Below, in pieces: positions 2 through 16,665 of a stretch of 16,665 nucleotides of DNA; the first letter of the stretch is position 1, and each line of letters opens with the position of its first letter. Location: the UHGV virus genome UHGV-0077406. One strand, written 5' to 3'. The notes below the pieces were generated by a model, which did not search any database, was not told where the DNA came from, and saw only the letters and a program-made list of their open reading frames with translations. The translations under genes were made by a program, and so were the position numbers. The DNA comes from a virus.

Positions 2-298
2 TCAGTCATTACTGATAGCGCCATAGCGTGAGCGGTAATTACGCAGGCGCGGGTCGATATATTCAGGGAATTTGTCTATTGTCGCTTTTCGCAACGGTCT
101 CATTGCTGTTTCGTTTGTTCGGTCCTTCTCCTGTTTTAGCGCGAGTTGTATATCGCGTCGGTACATCCGTTCTGCTTTTGTTTCTGGTGTCAGAGCAAGA
201 AACGCGTCGAAATTGTTTTTGATATTTTCCAGCACCTCCGCCTTGGAGCTACCGGAGCAATTGCGCGGGTCATCCGCACCATACAGAGGCGCTGGCAT
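2..298 (-). CDS. Hypothetical phage protein, partial (start codon at 298; C-terminus runs off the window edge)
   Basis: 98-aa ORF with ATG at 298 and no stop before the window edge; co-oriented and tightly packed downstream of the recombination module. No motif I can recognise. Confidence 0.4.
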   Translation of the reverse strand: MPAPLYGADDPRNCSGSSKAEVLENIKNNFDAFLALTPETKAERMYRRDIQLALKQEKDRTNETAMRPLRKATIDKFPEYIDPRLRNYRSRYGAISND

Positions 299-2996: not shown

Positions 2997-3380
2997 TCAC
3001 CTCGCCGTCAGTTGTTTTGATTTCCGGTAGCCTGCCGCGTAAATGGCTACGTTTGGAAGACATACACCAGTTTCTGGTTGCCTATGCCCAAACTCATTCG
3101 CGTACACAATGGCCGCTCTCTCCAGATTGCGTCTGTATTCTTTCTGTTGCCAGATCACGTCCTGTGCCATGAACTTAATTGGCTTAGCGTCTTCTATGCG
3201 CTCAGGCGTTTCGTGTTTACCTTTAGCCTGAATCTGTGCCAGACTGAGGGTAGGGCGGTGTAATACTTCTGAACTTATTGCTTCTTCGCGGGCCAGCACG
3301 CCGTTAGCTAATGCCTTTGCCTTTAAACGCTCACGACGACGAGAACGTGAATTGCCTTTGAACTGAGTTCTGCGTGTCAT
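2997..3380 (-). CDS. N: N-family transcription antiterminator (non-lambda specificity)
   Basis: First gene downstream of pL/nutL; AGGAGG RBS; N-terminal arginine-rich motif 'TRRTQFKGNSRSRRRERLKAKA'; 127 aa. Sequence differs from lambda N, so this gene lies outside the lambda-derived immunity segment. Confidence 0.7.
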   Translation of the reverse strand: MTRRTQFKGNSRSRRRERLKAKALANGVLAREEAISSEVLHRPTLSLAQIQAKGKHETPERIEDAKPIKFMAQDVIWQQKEYRRNLERAAIVYANEFGHRQPETGVCLPNVAIYAAGYRKSKQLTAR

Positions 3381-3869: not shown

Positions 3870-4802
3870 TTAAAGAACCGATTTAACAAGATGGTTTTTA
3901 CGGTACAGACCTATGCGATCATTGTGAATCTCAGTAGTCTCCACTAAAAGAGAAACAATCTGTCCGACCTTGTGTTTTTTTTGTATTAAATCTAGCATTT
4001 CAATCGGATAGGAAGCCTTTAAATGTTCACCACCAACATCAAGCTCCAGCTTCCCATATTTGGATAGAACGACCAGTTCGCCTGTAACCGTTTCAGTAAT
4101 GGGAGGGGATGAAATGGTTGATGTAAGTCTACTCACCAAGTACTTAATTTTATTGGAGTCAATAGTTGCCACCTTGGTGCCATTACTAAATGGACCGGTC
4201 CAACTTGCATCAAATGTTAAGTTGTGTTTATCGCATTCCTCTACGATTCTCTTAAGGCTTACAGTGGAATTGTATCCAATTTCAGCGACGTGATTCATGA
4301 AGTTGTTGTCGTCATCGCTTAACAACAAATCGAATATGCCTTTTACAGCCTTGCTGGGTACTGTTTCTACTAATTCTGCTATTCCTGTAGAGAAGGTGAC
4401 GCCCAATTTTGTAGACCCAGGGGATAAATCAGCCAGCCTGAGGTTTAAGGAGCTTTTCACGTCGTAGGGAACTTTTTTTGAGTCCTTGCCTGAGGCAATT
4501 TTGTGTGTTGCTCTTTGTATTAGCGCTGCAAGATTTGTTGAAATAGCCCCAAGCAGCTCTAAAGGAATAGAGCCAAAGTCAACCTCAGAGCCTTTCAGCC
4601 GCAGCTCAAAAAAATCGATAAGTGGGTGCCGACTATCTTGCTTTAATTTTTCGGCCTTCAAATCGCTCAGATGAGAATCCATGGAGCGATAAAGAAGCAT
4701 GTCAGCAAAGGACCTGGTTTTGTTTTGCTTCATTGCATCGACTTCTTTTTGAATGAAATCAATGCGTTTATCGCAATTTTTAAACATTGATTTATCATTC
4801 AT
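3870..4802 (-). CDS. Hypothetical 310-aa protein; second gene of the two-gene cassette in the rexAB-equivalent slot (candidate effector or sensor)
   Basis: Long AT-rich ORF; start at 4802 overlaps the stop of the upstream gene as ATGA; no TM segments and no catalytic motif I can recognise; unrelated to RexA or RexB as I recall them. Confidence 0.6.
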   Translation of the reverse strand: MNDKSMFKNCDKRIDFIQKEVDAMKQNKTRSFADMLLYRSMDSHLSDLKAEKLKQDSRHPLIDFFELRLKGSEVDFGSIPLELLGAISTNLAALIQRATHKIASGKDSKKVPYDVKSSLNLRLADLSPGSTKLGVTFSTGIAELVETVPSKAVKGIFDLLLSDDDNNFMNHVAEIGYNSTVSLKRIVEECDKHNLTFDASWTGPFSNGTKVATIDSNKIKYLVSRLTSTISSPPITETVTGELVVLSKYGKLELDVGGEHLKASYPIEMLDLIQKKHKVGQIVSLLVETTEIHNDRIGLYRKNHLVKSVL

Positions 4803-5278
4803 AAAAAAATCCTCACTAACCCTTTCGGGTTTTCACTGCGATCAAAACCAAACCAACCGCGCCAGTAGCTACGCCAGTACTCATAATCATAGTTAGGGTC
4901 ATCTAAATTCTTCATGAGTAGTAGGACATCAATTTTGTAGTTTTGTTTGATGTAGTTTCGGTCAAGCAAATTATCGACGCGGCCCCGAAGCATGACAGGT
5001 ATTGAGTTTATATTGCTATAGTCACATACCAACAAAATATCAATATCATCAGGCTCTGGTTTAGACGTGGTGTATGAACCATCAACCCATATTTCTGTAA
5101 AACAGCCATATTGAGCAGATAATTCTCGAATAGATTCGAGTAGCTGTATAAAATTACAGTATAGCATGCCTCGCCTGGATGATGAAGGAAAGCAATCGAC
5201 ACAATACGATTTTAATCCAGCTTCATCCATGTCATGGAACCCTGGCTCAAACAGGGGTGGGTAATTAATTTTATCCAT
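4799..5278 (-). CDS. Minimal pol-beta-superfamily nucleotidyltransferase (MNT/SMODS-like), 159 aa; first gene of the cassette
   Basis: Signature 'VDGSYTTSKPEPDDIDILLV' matches the hG[GS]-x9-Dh[DE]h NTase motif, with a possible third acidic residue in 'LLLMKNLDD'; Cys-rich N-terminus; co-oriented with cI and 149 nt downstream of its stop. Confidence 0.6.
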   Translation of the reverse strand: MDKINYPPLFEPGFHDMDEAGLKSYCVDCFPSSSRRGMLYCNFIQLLESIRELSAQYGCFTEIWVDGSYTTSKPEPDDIDILLVCDYSNINSIPVMLRGRVDNLLDRNYIKQNYKIDVLLLMKNLDDPNYDYEYWRSYWRGWFGFDRSENPKGLVRIFL

Positions 5279-5427: not shown

Positions 5428-6144
<717 letters not shown>

Positions 6145-8015: not shown

Positions 8016-10922
8016 ATGACGCCAAGTGAACTTAGCGACCTGCTTTGGGCGCAGGTTGACAGGGTGGCTCCGCACCTGTTGCCAAACGGCAAGAAAGAGG
8101 GGCATGAGTGGGTTGCCGGTAACATCAACGGTGACAAGGGAAACAGCCTTAAGGTCAACCTTAGCGGCAAGAAAAAATGGGCTGATTTCGCCGAGGGAGA
8201 CGGCGGTGACATGCTTGATTTGTGGATGGCATGTCGTGGAATTAACCTGCATCAGGCTATGCAGGAAGCGAAAGCATTTCTCGGTATCAAGGATGACGAT
8301 CACCATTTCGATGCCAGACGTGAGAAAAAATTCTCCAGACCTGATCGCAAGAAAATCGCCCGCTACGTTACCAGAACAGAATCCCATCTTGAGTACCTGC
8401 AATCGCGTGGCATATCGCCAGAAATCGTAAAGCGCTACGAGGTTGTCAGCGGCAAGGTGTGGAATGGAGAGCGGGAACTGGATGCTCTGGTGATTCCGTA
8501 CAAACGCGATGGTGAGTTGTTGCAGGTCAAGCGAATCAGCACTGAGCGCCCGGACGGGAAGAAAGTCATTATGGCAGAAGGTGATTGCGAACCTTGCCTG
8601 TTCGGATGGCAGGCTCTGGACGCTGGCGTGAGGGCGGTTGTGCTTTGCGAAGGCGAAATTGATTGTATGAGCTATGCGCAATACGGCATCTCGGCGTTAT
8701 CCGTGCCGTTTGGTGGCGGGAAAGGCGCTAAGCAACAGTGGATTGAGTTTGAGTATCACAACCTCGACAGGTTTGAGGAAATATTCATCTCGATGGACGT
8801 TGATGATGTTGGTCGTGAAGCCGCAAGGGAAATCGCAAGCCGACTCGGTGAACATCGTTGCCGTCTTGTTACTCTGCCGTACAAAGACATCAACGAATGC
8901 CTGATGAACGGTGTTACCGAGGATGAAATCTGGCAGTACATCGGCACGGCATCCTACTTCGATCCTGAAGAACTCTACAGCGCGCGAGAGTTTTACCAGG
9001 ACACTATCAACGCTTTCTACGGCAAGCAGCAGTATCTGTTTAATCCACCGTGGGAATCTCTGGCAGATAAATTCCAGTTCCGTGAGGCAGAGTTGACGCT
9101 GGTCAATGGTGTGAACGGTCACGGAAAAGCCTGTCCACTTGATGAACCAATTCTGCTCGCTAATGGTGAATGGACTACTCACGGGGATGTAAAAATTGGC
9201 GATCAGGTGGCATCAGTAGACGGCAATCCGTCAACTGTCACCGGGATATTCCCGCAGGGTGTTAGAGATGTTTACCGAGTCACATTTGAAGATGGTCGTT
9301 ATGTTGATTGCGCAGGCGATCACCTATGGGAGGTCACTAGTCGTGGATTCACGAAAGGCGAGAAGCGCCGCGTGATAGACACCTTCGAGCTGAAACGGTT
9401 GAGTGAAACGAAGAGGCACAAAAATGGCGTCAGGATACCCGAAATAACTGGTGACTTTGGCGACCACTCAGAGCCATTAGCATGGGTTATCGGCTCCCTT
9501 CTCGGGGATGGTAGTCTTAGCAATGGGAGCGTGAAGTTTTCAAACGTCGAGCCATACATGATCGAGCGTATGAAGGCTGAACTGCCTGATTACAACTTTT
9601 CTGGAGATGGTAAGGACTGGCTGATATCAACGGCGCGTGGTCAGGTAAATCCACTCATGGAGACCCTGCGAGTTTATGGACTAATGGGGTGCACAGCAAA
9701 AAACAAATTCATCCCTCGTGTGTTTTTTTCCGCAAACAAATCAACGCGTATAGGAATGCTGTGTGGTCTGCTTGAAACGGATGGTTATGTCGAGAAGGAT
9801 GGAACGCTTGTTTTTTCCTCAGCAAGTGAAGAACTGCGTAATGGGGTTGTTCAACTGGTTAACTCACTCGGCGGTTCATGCCGGACGCGAGTTAAAACTG
9901 GCGTGACATACACATACAAGGGCGATAAGCGGCATGGGATGGATTCATATGAGGCAAGGATACGACTGACAAGGGAAATCAGGGAGGCCATCCGTTCACC
10001 ACGACTCAATGGCAGATTAACTGCGCATCGATTCGAGGGGTGTGGGGTATTCGTCAGGAATGTTGAAAAAATCGGCAATGCAGAATGCTTGTGTATCATG
10101 GTCGATCACCCTCGCCACCTGTATGTAACCAGAGGATATGTGGCAACGCATAACACCGAGGTTGTCGGGCATATGGCGCTTGAGGCAATGCGTCAGGGTG
10201 TGAAGACGTGCATCGCGTCACTTGAGCTGAAGCCTGGTATTCTCCTTAAGCGCCTTACCCGTCAGGCGACGTGCTGCAAGATGCCGCCAGTGCTGGAAAT
10301 TGACTCTGCATTTAAATTTTATGACGAAAGACTTTGGGTGTTTGGCCTGACCGGAACGGCGAAAGCCGACAGGCTGATCGAAATATTCGACTACGCTCGC
10401 CGCCGATACGGGATCCAGTTATTCATCATCGACAGCCTGATGAAATGTGGCATAGGCGACGATGACTATAACGGGCAGAAGGCGTTTGTTGACTCGATTT
10501 GCGACTTCAAAAACAAAACAAACTCCCACGTCATTCTCGTTACTCACTCGCGAAAAGGAGACAGCGAAGAAAAACCAACCGGGAAAATGGACGTAAAAGG
10601 CTCTGGAGCGATAACAGACCTGACAGACAACCTTTTCATCATCTGGCGTAACAAGGCTCGCGAGAGAGCGTTACAGAGAGTTCAGAGTGGTGAAAAGATG
10701 TCAGAGAAGGACGAACAGCTACTGGCATCTCCGGCATCTGTTTTGATGCTTGAAAAACAACGTAACGGCGAAGGTTGGGAAGGTGGTGTCCCGTTGTTCC
10801 TTGACGAGCAATCGCACCAGTTCCTGCAACTTGAATCAGGATCGCCATATAGCTACATCGCCAATATGCCGAAATCGGAATATGACGAGGCGTGGCGACA
10901 GGAAAACGTGACGGAGTATTAA
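8016..10922 (+). CDS. Bifunctional DNA primase / replicative helicase (Toprim primase plus RecA-fold helicase) interrupted by an in-frame intein
   Basis: Toprim motifs ('VVLCEGEIDCMS', 'SMDVDDVGREAA'); helicase Walker A 'LVNGVNGHGK' and Walker B-like 'QLFIIDSL'; 968 aa. A 341-aa intein sits in the P-loop. Occupies the position of lambda P. Confidence 0.85.
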   Translation: MTPSELSDLLWAQVDRVAPHLLPNGKKEGHEWVAGNINGDKGNSLKVNLSGKKKWADFAEGDGGDMLDLWMACRGINLHQAMQEAKAFLGIKDDDHHFDARREKKFSRPDRKKIARYVTRTESHLEYLQSRGISPEIVKRYEVVSGKVWNGERELDALVIPYKRDGELLQVKRISTERPDGKKVIMAEGDCEPCLFGWQALDAGVRAVVLCEGEIDCMSYAQYGISALSVPFGGGKGAKQQWIEFEYHNLDRFEEIFISMDVDDVGREAAREIASRLGEHRCRLVTLPYKDINECLMNGVTEDEIWQYIGTASYFDPEELYSAREFYQDTINAFYGKQQYLFNPPWESLADKFQFREAELTLVNGVNGHGKACPLDEPILLANGEWTTHGDVKIGDQVASVDGNPSTVTGIFPQGVRDVYRVTFEDGRYVDCAGDHLWEVTSRGFTKGEKRRVIDTFELKRLSETKRHKNGVRIPEITGDFGDHSEPLAWVIGSLLGDGSLSNGSVKFSNVEPYMIERMKAELPDYNFSGDGKDWLISTARGQVNPLMETLRVYGLMGCTAKNKFIPRVFFSANKSTRIGMLCGLLETDGYVEKDGTLVFSSASEELRNGVVQLVNSLGGSCRTRVKTGVTYTYKGDKRHGMDSYEARIRLTREIREAIRSPRLNGRLTAHRFEGCGVFVRNVEKIGNAECLCIMVDHPRHLYVTRGYVATHNTEVVGHMALEAMRQGVKTCIASLELKPGILLKRLTRQATCCKMPPVLEIDSAFKFYDERLWVFGLTGTAKADRLIEIFDYARRRYGIQLFIIDSLMKCGIGDDDYNGQKAFVDSICDFKNKTNSHVILVTHSRKGDSEEKPTGKMDVKGSGAITDLTDNLFIIWRNKARERALQRVQSGEKMSEKDEQLLASPASVLMLEKQRNGEGWEGGVPLFLDEQSHQFLQLESGSPYSYIANMPKSEYDEAWRQENVTEY
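9132..10154 (+). mobile_element. Intein with double-motif LAGLIDADG homing endonuclease, inserted in the helicase Walker A loop
   Basis: Begins with Cys ('CPLDEPILLANG'), ends 'VATHN' followed by Thr (+1 nucleophile); two LAGLIDADG blocks ('LAWVIGSLLGDGSL', 'IGMLCGLLETDGYV'); 1023 nt in frame. The N-terminal boundary could be one codon earlier (Ala at 9129), which would restore a canonical GHGKT. Confidence 0.75.
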
Positions 10923-11004: not shown

Positions 11005-11616
11005 ATGCGAATAAAAAAACCAATTGATCACGATGAGCTTCTGTCAACATTATCATATGACTCAGAAACAGGAATATTTAAATGGCTAAAAACAAATTCA
11101 GTAGTAAGAGTAAAAGGTAGTATTGCTGGAGGTGTTAGTGGTGGTTATATATGCATTAGCATAAATAATGTTTTGTATTATGCGCATAGGCTTGCTTGGT
11201 TCTATGTATACAAAAAATGGCCTCCTAAGTTTATTGATCATGTAAATGGGAACAGACTTGACAATAGGATTTCAAATCTAAGACTGGCAACAGAGGAGCA
11301 GAATGCAAGAAACATTGTAGGTAATAGGTTAAACACATCCGGTGCGATTGGAGTGTCTTGGGATAAGACAACTGGCAGGTGGAAGTCTTATGTTGGTTAT
11401 AAAAATAAGACAATATCGTTAGGGTATTTCGATAGCAAAGAAGATGCAGCATTCATAGCAGCACTAGCAAGAAAGAAACTATATGGAACTTATGCGAGTA
11501 AAGCACTTAATTGCGAGCATGAGCTTTTATCTCAATTTAATAATGATGAGGATAAACTTGCGGAATATCTTAAGGAAAAATCTAAAAGGACTCGAAAGCG
11601 TGTTAAAAAAAGATAA
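11005..11616 (+). CDS. HNH homing endonuclease with C-terminal AP2-type DNA-binding domain
   Basis: HNH core 'YYAHRLAWF...IDHVNGNRLDNRISNLRLATEEQNARN' and AP2-like 'GVSWDKTTGRWKSYVGYKNKTISLGYFDSKEDAAFI'; markedly AT-rich relative to flanks; no obvious SD sequence. Confidence 0.8.
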   Translation: MRIKKPIDHDELLSTLSYDSETGIFKWLKTNSVVRVKGSIAGGVSGGYICISINNVLYYAHRLAWFYVYKKWPPKFIDHVNGNRLDNRISNLRLATEEQNARNIVGNRLNTSGAIGVSWDKTTGRWKSYVGYKNKTISLGYFDSKEDAAFIAALARKKLYGTYASKALNCEHELLSQFNNDEDKLAEYLKEKSKRTRKRVKKR

Positions 11617-15018: not shown

Positions 15019-15667
15019 TGGCAGCAAATACCGAAATATTTGGGTAGTTGGCGATCTGCACGGATGCTACACGAACCTGATGAAAAAACTGGAGACGATA
15101 GGATTCGACACCAAAAAAGACCTGCTTATCTCGGTTGGCGATTTGGTCGATCGCGGTACAGAGAACGTCGAATGCCTGGAATTAATCACATTCCCCTGGT
15201 TCAGAGCTGTACGTGGAAACCATGAGCAAATGATGATTGATGGCTTATCAGAGCGCGGAAACGTCAATCACTGGATGCTTAATGGCGGTGGCTGGTTCTT
15301 TAATCTCGATTACGACAAAGAAATTCTGGCTAAAGCTCTTGCCCATAAAGCAGATGAACTTCCGTTAATCATCGAACTGGTGAGCAAAGATAAAAAATAT
15401 GTCATCTGCCACGCCGATTATCCTTGTGACGAATACGAGTTTGGAAAGCCAGTTGATCATCAGCAGGTAATCTGGAACCGAGAACGAATCAGCAACTCAC
15501 AAGACGGGATCGTGAAAGAAATTAAAGGCGCGGACACGTTCATCTTTGGTCATACGCCAGCAGTGAAACCGCTCAAATTTGCCAACCAGATGTATATCGA
15601 TACCGGCGCAGTGTTCTGCGGAAAGCTCACATTGATTCAGGTACAGGGAGAAGGCGCGTGGGCATAA
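14996..15667 (+). CDS. Ser/Thr protein phosphatase (lambda PPase / NinI)
   Basis: Internal ATG at 14996 with GGAGTGA RBS; metallophosphatase motifs 'GDLHG', 'GDLVDRG', 'GNHE'; near-identical to the lambda phosphatase over the stretch I can recall. Confidence 0.85.
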
Positions 15668-16176
15668 GAGAACTAAACCTCACCAAAGAACAGCATGAGT
15701 GGCTGAATGGCTGGCTTGAACTGTGGGGCGCATGGGTTTATTCAGGTCGTCTGGAAAAGCGCATGAGCAGCGTAATAGCGAAGTTCATGGAGAGCGTAGA
15801 GCCGGGAAGAGTTATGACAAGGCCAATGTGTAATGATGATGATGGAATGTTGATTTCTCAGGTCGTCGATTCCGTCATGTACATTGACAAGAAAGCCTTT
15901 GGCATCCTCCTCAGCTACTACGCTCATGGTTCATCTAAGCGAGCAATTGCATCCTACTATCACGCGACTGCAAAGCCACGCAAGATGTGTGGACGTGGTG
16001 GCGAGGGATGGAGAAAACCTTCAATGGCAACCTGTAGAAACGAAATTGACGACATCCTGAAAGCGTCGTTATTTGTTTTGTACCAGCCAATGCAAAATGC
16101 TTTCAAAATGCGTAAACGTGTTGAGAAAGTTAAGCATGTTGCTGTTAAAAGCCTTGACATGCAATTATCTATTTAG
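15658..16176 (+). CDS. Q: Late-gene antiterminator Q (non-lambda Q family)
   Basis: GTG start with GGAGAAGG RBS; motifs '[12 protein letters not shown]' and '[17 protein letters not shown]' match the WGAW...C.DDD pattern of Q proteins of the phage 21/82/933W type; last gene before the late region. Confidence 0.65.
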
Positions 16177-16239
16177 CCATAATTAGAAGGTAAGCTGCCG
16201 TTAGTGACTCTTAAGTTGCAACGGTGGCTTTTTTTATTT

Positions 16240-16314
16240 GGGTCAGTCGTATAAAGGTCATTACGGAAGGCTGTTAACCTTCTTATCGTGGTTCGAGTCC
16301 ACGCTGTCCCGCCA
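16240..16314 (+). tRNA. tRNA with anticodon GUU (Asn-type), divergent phage-type
   Basis: Hand-folded cloverleaf: acceptor GGGTCAG/CTGTCCC (one mismatch), anticodon stem GAAGG/CCTTC with loop CTGTTAA, T-arm CGTGG-TTCGAGT-CCACG, 3' GCCA. D-stem has one mismatch. Confidence 0.5.
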
Positions 16315-16319
16315 AACAT

Positions 16320-16395
16320 GCTGGTTTAGCTCCAATGGTAGAGCAGTCGCCTTGTAAGCGAATGGGTAGCGGTTCAAGTCCGTTAACCAGCACCA
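16320..16395 (+). tRNA. tRNA with anticodon UGU (Thr-type)
   Basis: Hand-folded cloverleaf: perfect 7-bp acceptor GCTGGTT/AACCAGC, D-arm GCTC-CAATGGTA-GAGC, anticodon loop CTTGTAA, T-arm AGCGG-TTCAAGT-CCGTT, discriminator A plus CCA. Confidence 0.6.
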
Positions 16396-16511
16396 TAACT
16401 GAGCCGTAGCCACTGGCTATCCTGAACTCATCAGTGATAGTTACGCTGCGGCCTTCTTTCCCCCTTCCCAATATAAGAACTACGCAATCCGTTACTGGCG
16501 GAGGCGTTGCT

Positions 16512-16665
16512 ATGAAATCAATGGACAAAATCTCAACTGGCATTGCCTACGGAACATCCGCTGGTAGTGCGGGATACTGGTTTTTGCAGTGGTTGGATCA
16601 GGTCAGTCCATCACAGTGGGCTGCGATTGGTGTACTGGGGAGTCTGGTTCTGGGCTTCCTGACAT
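16512..16665 (+). CDS. S: Pinholin (phage 21 S-type holin/antiholin with dual start), partial; continues past the window end
   Basis: GGCGGAGG RBS; '[50 protein letters not shown]' with starts at codons 1 and 4 (16512 and 16521), as in the S21 antiholin/holin pair. Confidence 0.7.

Follow-up and report, generated by a model that had tools for sequence, protein, structure and literature searches.

The phage 21/Sf6 tRNA-Asn-tRNA-Thr module in a lambdoid late operon and its relation to tRNA-cutting defenses

[quoted passage not shown] 1991), and also cites an ileX tRNA gene near stx2. In phage L and ST64T, the second slot holds a degenerate gene designated tRNA-Leu(UAA), which scores 42.1 bits and is not called by ARAGORN. 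Plunkett et al. are said to have shown in 1999 that the ileZ-argN-argO tRNA genes of Stx phages lie between Q/pR'/tR' and the lysis genes and are cotranscribed with the late genes; in these phages (933W type), the genes serve rare Ile and Arg codons and are followed by stx cargo. P22 has no tRNA genes according to the phage L paper, whose authors also regard the choice between excision from the late mRNA and transcription from a promoter of their own as not settled for such tRNAs. The absence of tRNA genes from P22 and the degenerate second gene of phage L and ST64T indicate that the module is dispensable.

A function for phage-borne tRNA-Thr has been described in work on Old, the P2 prophage protein that is the agent of classic P2-lambda interference (Govande et al. 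2025, PMC12445682). Old kills by cutting the host tRNA-ThrU(UGU), and the resulting loss of thrU blocks ACA decoding, from which phage tRNA-Thr(UGU) genes rescue the cells. All phage tRNAs enriched in the screen against Old had a UGU anticodon, and according to the authors, most library tRNAs with the matching anticodon were suppressors. The tRNA-Thr of phage 21 (tRNA-Thr21) protects against P2 Old and resists purified Old in vitro; the protection by tRNA-Thr was partial and came from plasmid expression. Resistance needs shortening of the stem and alteration of the CNG motif together, with altered pairs at both cut sites. The authors argue that evasion of defenses is a main reason why phages carry tRNAs (PMC12445682). 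[quoted passage not shown]

Here, we describe an Asn-Thr pair in a 16,665-nucleotide (nt) stretch of the viral genome UHGV-0077406 (the whole stretch is termed the window herein). The two tRNA genes stand in tandem, 5 nt apart, directly after the late leader terminator tR' and before the holin gene, and the feature belongs to the known tRNA module of phage 21 and Sf6 late operons. The sequences of both tRNAs match the phage 21 and Sf6 copies with 100% identity. Phage 21 also has the same tR', spacing, post-tRNA hairpin, ribosome-binding site (RBS), and S21 pinholin start, but it differs in its Q allele (the window has the Sf6/BTP1 type), in the Q-binding repeats within the late promoter pR', and in its early region, which in the window is Stx-phage/Sf101-like; similarity to phage 21 begins only at ∼16191. 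Sf6, BTP1, and other P22-like phages (Lederbergvirus) share Q, pR', tR', both tRNAs, and the hairpin with the window, whereas their lambda S-type holin lies ∼240 nt downstream and the pinholin cassette of the window 116 nt downstream. Phage L and ST64T have an identical tRNA-Asn and the same Q type and tR', but the window has an intact tRNA-Thr where they have the degenerate second gene. The Stx-phage genes occupy the same slot as the pair, although no cargo follows here. With T5, the pair has two of three anticodons in common, and position 39 is not U in either system, so that the AriB motif U36-A-A-U39-C40 is broken in both. T5, however, also has tRNA-Lys, its genes are only ∼61 to 64% identical to those of the window, and they form an early tRNA cluster, whereas the window belongs to a temperate phage with a Q-dependent late operon and a putative resistance to AriB. 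In function, the pair would act like the T5 tRNAs against PARIS and like the phage tRNA-Thr genes that rescue cells from Old.

Position of the tRNA pair in the late operon

The start of the late operon in the window is made up as follows.

15658-16176, plus strand: Q-family late antiterminator gene (172 amino acids [aa]; Pfam Phage_antitermQ, 1.1e-25)
16154-16183, plus strand: late promoter pR' (-35 TTGACA at 16154-16159, -10 CATAAT at 16178-16183, 18-nt spacing)
16192-16237, plus strand: late leader terminator tR' (hairpin at 16192-16230, followed by seven U at 16231-16237)
16240-16314, plus strand: tRNA-Asn(GUU), 75 nt including the encoded CCA (ARAGORN [gtt] and Rfam RF00005)
16320-16395, plus strand: tRNA-Thr(UGU), 76 nt including the encoded CCA (ARAGORN [tgt] and Rfam RF00005)
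16403-16452, plus strand: imperfect hairpin 3' of tRNA-Thr, the last part of the shared module
16500-16665, plus strand: RBS GGAGG (16500-16504) and start of an S21-type pinholin/antipinholin gene, which runs off the window

The Q protein is identical to Sf6 gp59 at 171 of 173 positions and to phage 21 Q at 138 of 173, and the Q stop codon falls within pR'. This promoter, which matched 11 of 12 consensus positions in a promoter scan, aligns with the annotated pR'/Q-binding element (QBE) of phage 21 and with the late promoter of Sf6. A QBE-like tandem repeat (AATTATCT/ATTTAGCC, 16163 to 16178) lies between its -35 and -10 boxes; the likely QBE given in the phage L paper is AATTATCC/AtTTAgCC. 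Alignment to phage 21 places the transcription start at ∼16190. The tR' element folds with -20.2 kcal/mol (z = -3.55; none of 200 shuffled sequences was equally stable) and is, base for base, the segment annotated as a terminator in phage 21 and Sf6; in view of this fold and these annotations, the "no terminator" output of a consensus terminator scan was set aside. tRNA-Asn begins 2 to 3 nt past the U run of tR'. The position between Q and the lysis cassette that a preliminary description, made from the sequence, had given for the pair is correct and can be refined: pR' and tR' lie between Q and the tRNAs, which makes the tRNAs the first genes of the late operon. Since the pair is located just downstream of pR'/tR', its transcription is expected only after Q antitermination, and on this arrangement it should be transcribed only by Q-modified polymerase.

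In the 16.6 kb of the window, ARAGORN called two tRNA genes and no more, both on the plus strand. Rfam model RF00005 (gathering score, 29) matched both, with 55.3 bits (E value, 5.6e-11) for tRNA-Asn and 61.5 bits (E value, 1.2e-12) for tRNA-Thr, and positions 1 to 71 of its 71 positions were covered in each case, which corresponds to a complete cloverleaf. Besides the tRNA model, no family was matched in an Rfam scan of positions 15600 to 16665 with E values of up to 1. Both programs thus agree with the preliminary description on the presence of Asn-GUU and Thr-UGU genes from 16240 onward. The imperfect stems described earlier were also seen: tRNA-Asn is mismatched at U4.U69 (bases 4-68) of the acceptor stem and at U13.U22 of the D stem, and tRNA-Thr has G27.A43 at the top of its anticodon stem (GUCGC/GCGAA), which leaves four pairs. 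The core nucleotides U8, A14, G18 G19, U33, purine 37, T-loop UUCRA, and G53-C61 are all found in tRNA-Asn. The same set is found in tRNA-Thr except at position 14, which is C (U in a minor allele) and not A; the tRNA-Thr of T5 likewise lacks A14. Host asnT (72.6 bits) and thrU (73.8 bits) score 12 to 17 bits above the window pair, whose scores are nevertheless within those seen for genuine tRNAs of E. coli (e.g., tyrU, 53.4 bits).

The signals for charging are in place as well. tRNA-Asn, with the anticodon stem GAAGG/CCUUC, has the AsnRS identity set, G34 U35 U36 plus the discriminator G73. tRNA-Thr has G1-C72, C2-G71, G35, and U36, which we take to be the exact ThrRS identity positions. In general terms, the rule for AsnRS is a GUU anticodon plus G73, and ThrRS identity resides in acceptor-stem pairs and the anticodon (PMC9976931).

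The spacer from tRNA-Thr to the pinholin gene (16396 to 16511) measures 116 nt, where ∼115 bp of noncoding DNA had been described, and contains no plus-strand open reading frame (ORF) of ≥20 aa. Minus-strand ORFs that run across the tRNAs (48, 50, and 86 aa) were dismissed as mechanical because they overlap conserved tRNA genes. The region from 16396 to 16530 folds with a z value of -3.9. The hairpin at 16403 to 16452 was found in most of 145 related loci, which were compiled from two exact-seed scans of viral contigs and from annotated records, and in a divergent variant of it, a double change from G-C to A-U preserves the outer stem. Seven consecutive T follow the hairpin in phage 21, a run that is broken in the window. 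The hairpin had no match in Rfam and may be a processing signal, a 3' stabilizer, or the remnant of a terminator. The pinholin gene has dual starts (ATG at 16512 and ATG at 16521), and the 51 residues encoded within the window match the start of phage 21 S21-71 without a difference, consistent with the earlier assignment. A holin gene follows 116 to 245 nt downstream in nearly all of the 145 loci, with no gene between; the lack of a cargo gene, remarked on in the preliminary description, is therefore the rule for this module.

On the other side of the module, an HNH endonuclease gene (19484-19996) is inserted between Q and the tRNAs in a closely related prophage of E. coli 20AR0300 (locus L127), and the same junction was found in six viral loci, so that cargo is possible on the Q side.

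Codon use and anticodon-stem nucleases

High use of ACA (and of AAC/AAU), beyond what the host pool can serve in late protein synthesis, could by itself account for the pair, with codon supply as its only role and the resistance of its products to nucleases as a by-product of drift. For tRNA-Thr, the codon counts agree with this. ACA occurs at 14.7 to 17.2 per 1,000 in phage genes and at 5.4 per 1,000 in 42 K-12 genes, a roughly 3-fold difference; it makes up 26 to 33% of the Thr codons in phage genes compared with 10% in the host, and every late gene examined contained 2 to 14 ACA codons. For Asn codons, by contrast, the excess over the host is only ∼20%. Several asn tRNA genes are available in the host, and with so slight an enrichment, there is no obvious need for more tRNA-Asn. 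The Asn codons of capsid genes are mostly AAC, with 18 AAC and 3 AAU in the E. coli 20AR0300 prophage and AAC in 24 of 25 cases in the phage L paper. ACA is read by a single E. coli tRNA, thrU. The SfI paper reports the same ACA bias, and its authors, who found no codon bias that would explain the Asn gene, called the significance of tRNA-Asn unclear (PMC3636060). The compensation of codon usage suggested in the preliminary description thus applies to Thr but is not evident for Asn.

The tRNA-Thr of the window is tRNA-Thr21 base for base. We compared the anticodon stems of phage and host tRNAs directly from their sequences and not from published alignments. The tRNA-Thr stem has no CNG on either strand and four pairs, compared with CUG/CAG and five pairs in host thrU. 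All sequence characters of the Old-resistant class (a UGU anticodon, an altered CNG at 28-30/40-42, and a short stem) are present in it, and with its short stem and no CNG, tRNA-Thr would be expected to survive Old. The mismatch G27.A43, listed earlier as an imperfection, is part of the published resistance mechanism, as it shortens the anticodon stem. The suggestion that the tRNAs may counter tRNA-targeting defenses is thereby supported, since the identical tRNA-Thr21 is published as rescuing cells from P2 Old. By its identity to the phage 21 gene, the prophage tRNA-Thr would be expressed, processed, charged, and resistant in the same way.

Variation among the related loci also bears on codon supply as the only role. 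Both resistance changes are fixed in the main Thr allele, and resistance needs both together. At 10 of the 145 loci, we found hybrid tRNA-Thr alleles in which bases 1 to 26 are of the phage type and the 3' half is similar to that of host thrU; such alleles suggest that recombination with the host gene has occurred. In nine of the 10, CAU stands in place of CAG, and the top of the anticodon stem has two broken pairs; in the remaining one, the 3' half is fully host-like. Host-like alleles that nevertheless show the broken top pairs and the altered CAG argue against drift, as do the exclusively UGU anticodons of the phage tRNAs in the Old screen, whose authors favor defense evasion (PMC12445682). 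Together with the low Asn enrichment, these observations make codon supply alone an unlikely explanation.

One end of the window carries a gene for a protein that acts on RecBCD.

2-298, minus strand: Abc2, P22-type anti-RecBCD protein (Pfam, 1.5e-35)

Phage 21 encodes Gam. Old is activated by inhibition of RecBCD (PMC12445682), and a RecBCD-modifying phage of the Abc2 type is the kind of phage to which RecBCD-guarding defenses like P2 Old respond.

For tRNA-Asn, the comparison extends to two nucleases. P2 Old also cuts host tRNA-Asn(GUU), at a lower rate than thrU (Govande et al. 2025, PMC12445682), and the same host tRNA is a secondary target of AriB of PARIS (Belukhina 2025); the data on Asn and Thr as PARIS targets are those of Belukhina 2025, and neither is listed in Burman 2024. 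A paired CNG motif (28-30/40-42) and an AriB motif, UAAUC[A/C], are present in both host tRNAs, thrU and asnT, and neither motif occurs in the two window tRNAs. At the site of the AriB motif, tRNA-Thr reads UAAGCG and tRNA-Asn reads UAACCU, compared with UAAUCA and UAAUCC in the host, and the AriB determinants (U39, position 41, and U16) are substituted in both, position 16 in the D loop being A where the host has U. A divergent Asn allele found at some of the related loci (see below) and T5 tRNA-Asn also lack both motifs. Phage and host tRNAs are, however, only ∼62 to 70% identical (∼62% for Asn), so that the loss of any one short motif is weak evidence on its own. Most likely, tRNA-Asn would serve as a replacement for a secondary target of Old and PARIS AriB.

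A wider interpretation is that tRNA-Asn is a second nuclease-proof replacement and not a codon supply, and that Asn and Thr together form a counterdefense cassette against the OLD/PARIS Toprim anticodon-stem nucleases, which is timed by Q and passes as one piece between lambdoid and P22-like prophages. It is based on the facts that both anticodons are targeted by Old and by AriB and that both genes lack the host cleavage motifs. We put it forward tentatively, as something possible rather than probable.

Two narrower assignments were rejected. The prime AriB target in B185 PARIS is tRNA-Lys(UUU), and neither the window nor a P22-like relative of 40 kb (two tRNAs each) nor the 41.4 kb scanned of phage 21 (42.9 kb) contained a tRNA-Lys(UUU). 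Bases 1 to 38000 of phage 21 held no tRNA besides the pair. The pair is accordingly not an anti-PARIS set of the T5 type; without a resistant tRNA-Lys, it cannot neutralize B185 PARIS. HepS (Gifsy-1) was considered as a target defense and found no support, since it mainly targets Thr(GGU) and cleaves within the anticodon loop, where the window tRNAs show no change.

Spread and conservation of the module

A 461-bp region comprising the pair matched 98 phage records, most of which annotate tRNA-Asn and tRNA-Thr; phage 21, SfI, Sf6, BTP1, SPN9CC, and many P22-like Salmonella and Escherichia phages are among them. The region is also present, with PGAP annotation, in 1,023 of 5,426 complete E. coli genomes, i.e., in about a fifth. 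Similarity to Sf6 and BTP1 spans 16100 to 16457 at 97.8 to 99.2% identity and ends at ∼16457, and similarity to phage 21 and SfI spans 16191 to 16560. At the 145 related loci, at least three types of Q/pR'/tR' region and at least four types of holin are combined with the module, which is exchanged as a single block within the mosaic typical of lambdoid phages. The only local peculiarity of the window is that Q and the promoter are of the Sf6/BTP1 type and the pinholin cassette is that of phage 21.

The tRNA content of the module varies. At one locus, a tRNA-Gly(UCC) gene occupies the first slot instead of Asn, and at four loci, a similar tRNA-Gly(UCC) gene is present as a third gene after Thr. 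A scan of genome_contigs yielded five species representatives only, two of them short contigs of metagenome-assembled genomes (MAGs). Exact tRNA-Asn matches at L130 and L133 (3.9 and 6.9 kb; MAGs labeled Segatella copri and Collinsella sp.) are most likely due to a binning error.

The part of the window upstream of the late operon holds further genes, among them the following two.

2997-3380: N
5428-6141: cI repressor

Between them, at the position of lambda rexAB, two adjacent minus-strand genes (3870-5278) match the candidate defense system PDC-M63 in PADLOC (B, 7.5e-45, 310 aa; A, 1.8e-41, 159 aa); the A protein also matches Pfam DUF6932. Farther downstream, a plus-strand gene (8016-10922) encodes a 968-aa replication protein of the Toprim primase/helicase type with LAGLIDADG and Hint-like matches in its middle. 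By these matches, the middle segment looks like an intein; it is ∼97% identical in the Stx phages Min27, phi24B, and others, where it lies inside the gene annotated P, and is thus not unique to the window. An ORF resembling homing endonucleases, with HNH and AP2 domains, follows directly after the replication gene (11005-11616, plus strand).

The same set of 145 loci allowed us to follow the structure of the two tRNAs. Substitutions were classified against the cloverleaf by script and by hand; MAFFT put the D and T arms of the divergent Asn allele out of register. For both genes, the allele in the window is also the most frequent one, found at 108 of the 145 loci for Asn and at 83 for Thr. Pairing is intact throughout each allele found two or more times, and only alleles found once contain changes that break a pair. 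Compensated pairs were found in tRNA-Thr at 5-68 (G-C to U-A, five loci) and 49-65 (A-U to G-C) and in tRNA-Asn at 28-42 (A-U to C-G). In the divergent Asn(GUU) allele, which four loci carry in the same slot, seven pairs distributed over the D, anticodon, and T stems have undergone double compensatory changes. The acceptor stem of this allele does not differ from that of the main allele and retains even U4.U69, a mismatch that may itself be selected. The preserved pairing and the compensatory changes indicate that the genes are under selection for tRNA function and are not pseudogenes. The imperfect stems are conserved features and not signs of decay: the mismatches that had raised the question of function are real, and the stems are kept by selection across the 145 loci.

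These data also bear on the possibility that the cloverleafs serve the late transcript chiefly as signals for RNA processing or stability, with RNase P and RNase E splitting the leader from the lysis mRNA and decoding as a secondary role. The location of the tRNAs at the 5' end of the late transcript, close behind tR' and ahead of a covarying hairpin, and the movement of the unit as a block between Q and holin types would suit such signals. Anticodons and synthetase identity elements, which a pure signal would not need, are nevertheless kept in divergent alleles, and many lambdoid phages, lambda and P22 included, do without the module; we consider this role as the main one very improbable. That the genes are pseudogene relics of an ancient capture of host tRNAs, with no part in decoding, can practically be dismissed: against the deficit of 12 to 17 bits relative to the host, the mismatches in three stems, C14 in Thr, the degenerate second slot of phage L and ST64T (42 bits), and the lack of tRNA genes in P22 stand their full length, the encoded CCA, intact anticodon loops, T loops, and identity elements, the compensatory changes with pair breaking confined to singletons, and, for Thr, the plasmid rescue in which the identical sequence restores growth under Old attack and which in effect refutes the relic interpretation for this gene.

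Proposed role of the tRNA pair

We think it probable that the pair encodes functional tRNAs and constitutes the first unit of the late operon, with tRNA-Thr replacing the thrU cut by Old and tRNA-Asn likely having the same role. Following the phage 21 annotation and general lambdoid biology, pR' would fire constitutively, and the polymerase would halt at tR', ∼45 nt on; only Q-modified polymerase would pass tR' into tRNA-Asn, tRNA-Thr, the hairpin, and the lysis and virion genes. Host enzymes would presumably cut the tRNAs, which have an encoded CCA, from this late transcript. tRNA-Thr(UGU) would then decode ACA, which is otherwise served by thrU alone, and its 4-bp anticodon stem without a paired CNG would let it survive Toprim nucleases such as P2 Old, which cut thrU. 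tRNA-Asn could be a like replacement for a secondary target of Old and PARIS AriB.

The value of the pair for annotation is small, as it is routinely annotated and occurs in about one-fifth of complete E. coli genomes. The purpose of the Asn gene has been called unclear since 2013. With regard to tRNA-Thr, P2-lambda interference is now explained by the loss of thrU, and a common prophage module has an Old-resistant copy of that very tRNA at a site where it would be made only in lytic growth. The module is thus a clean temperate-phage case of the idea that phage tRNAs outlast tRNA-cutting defenses.
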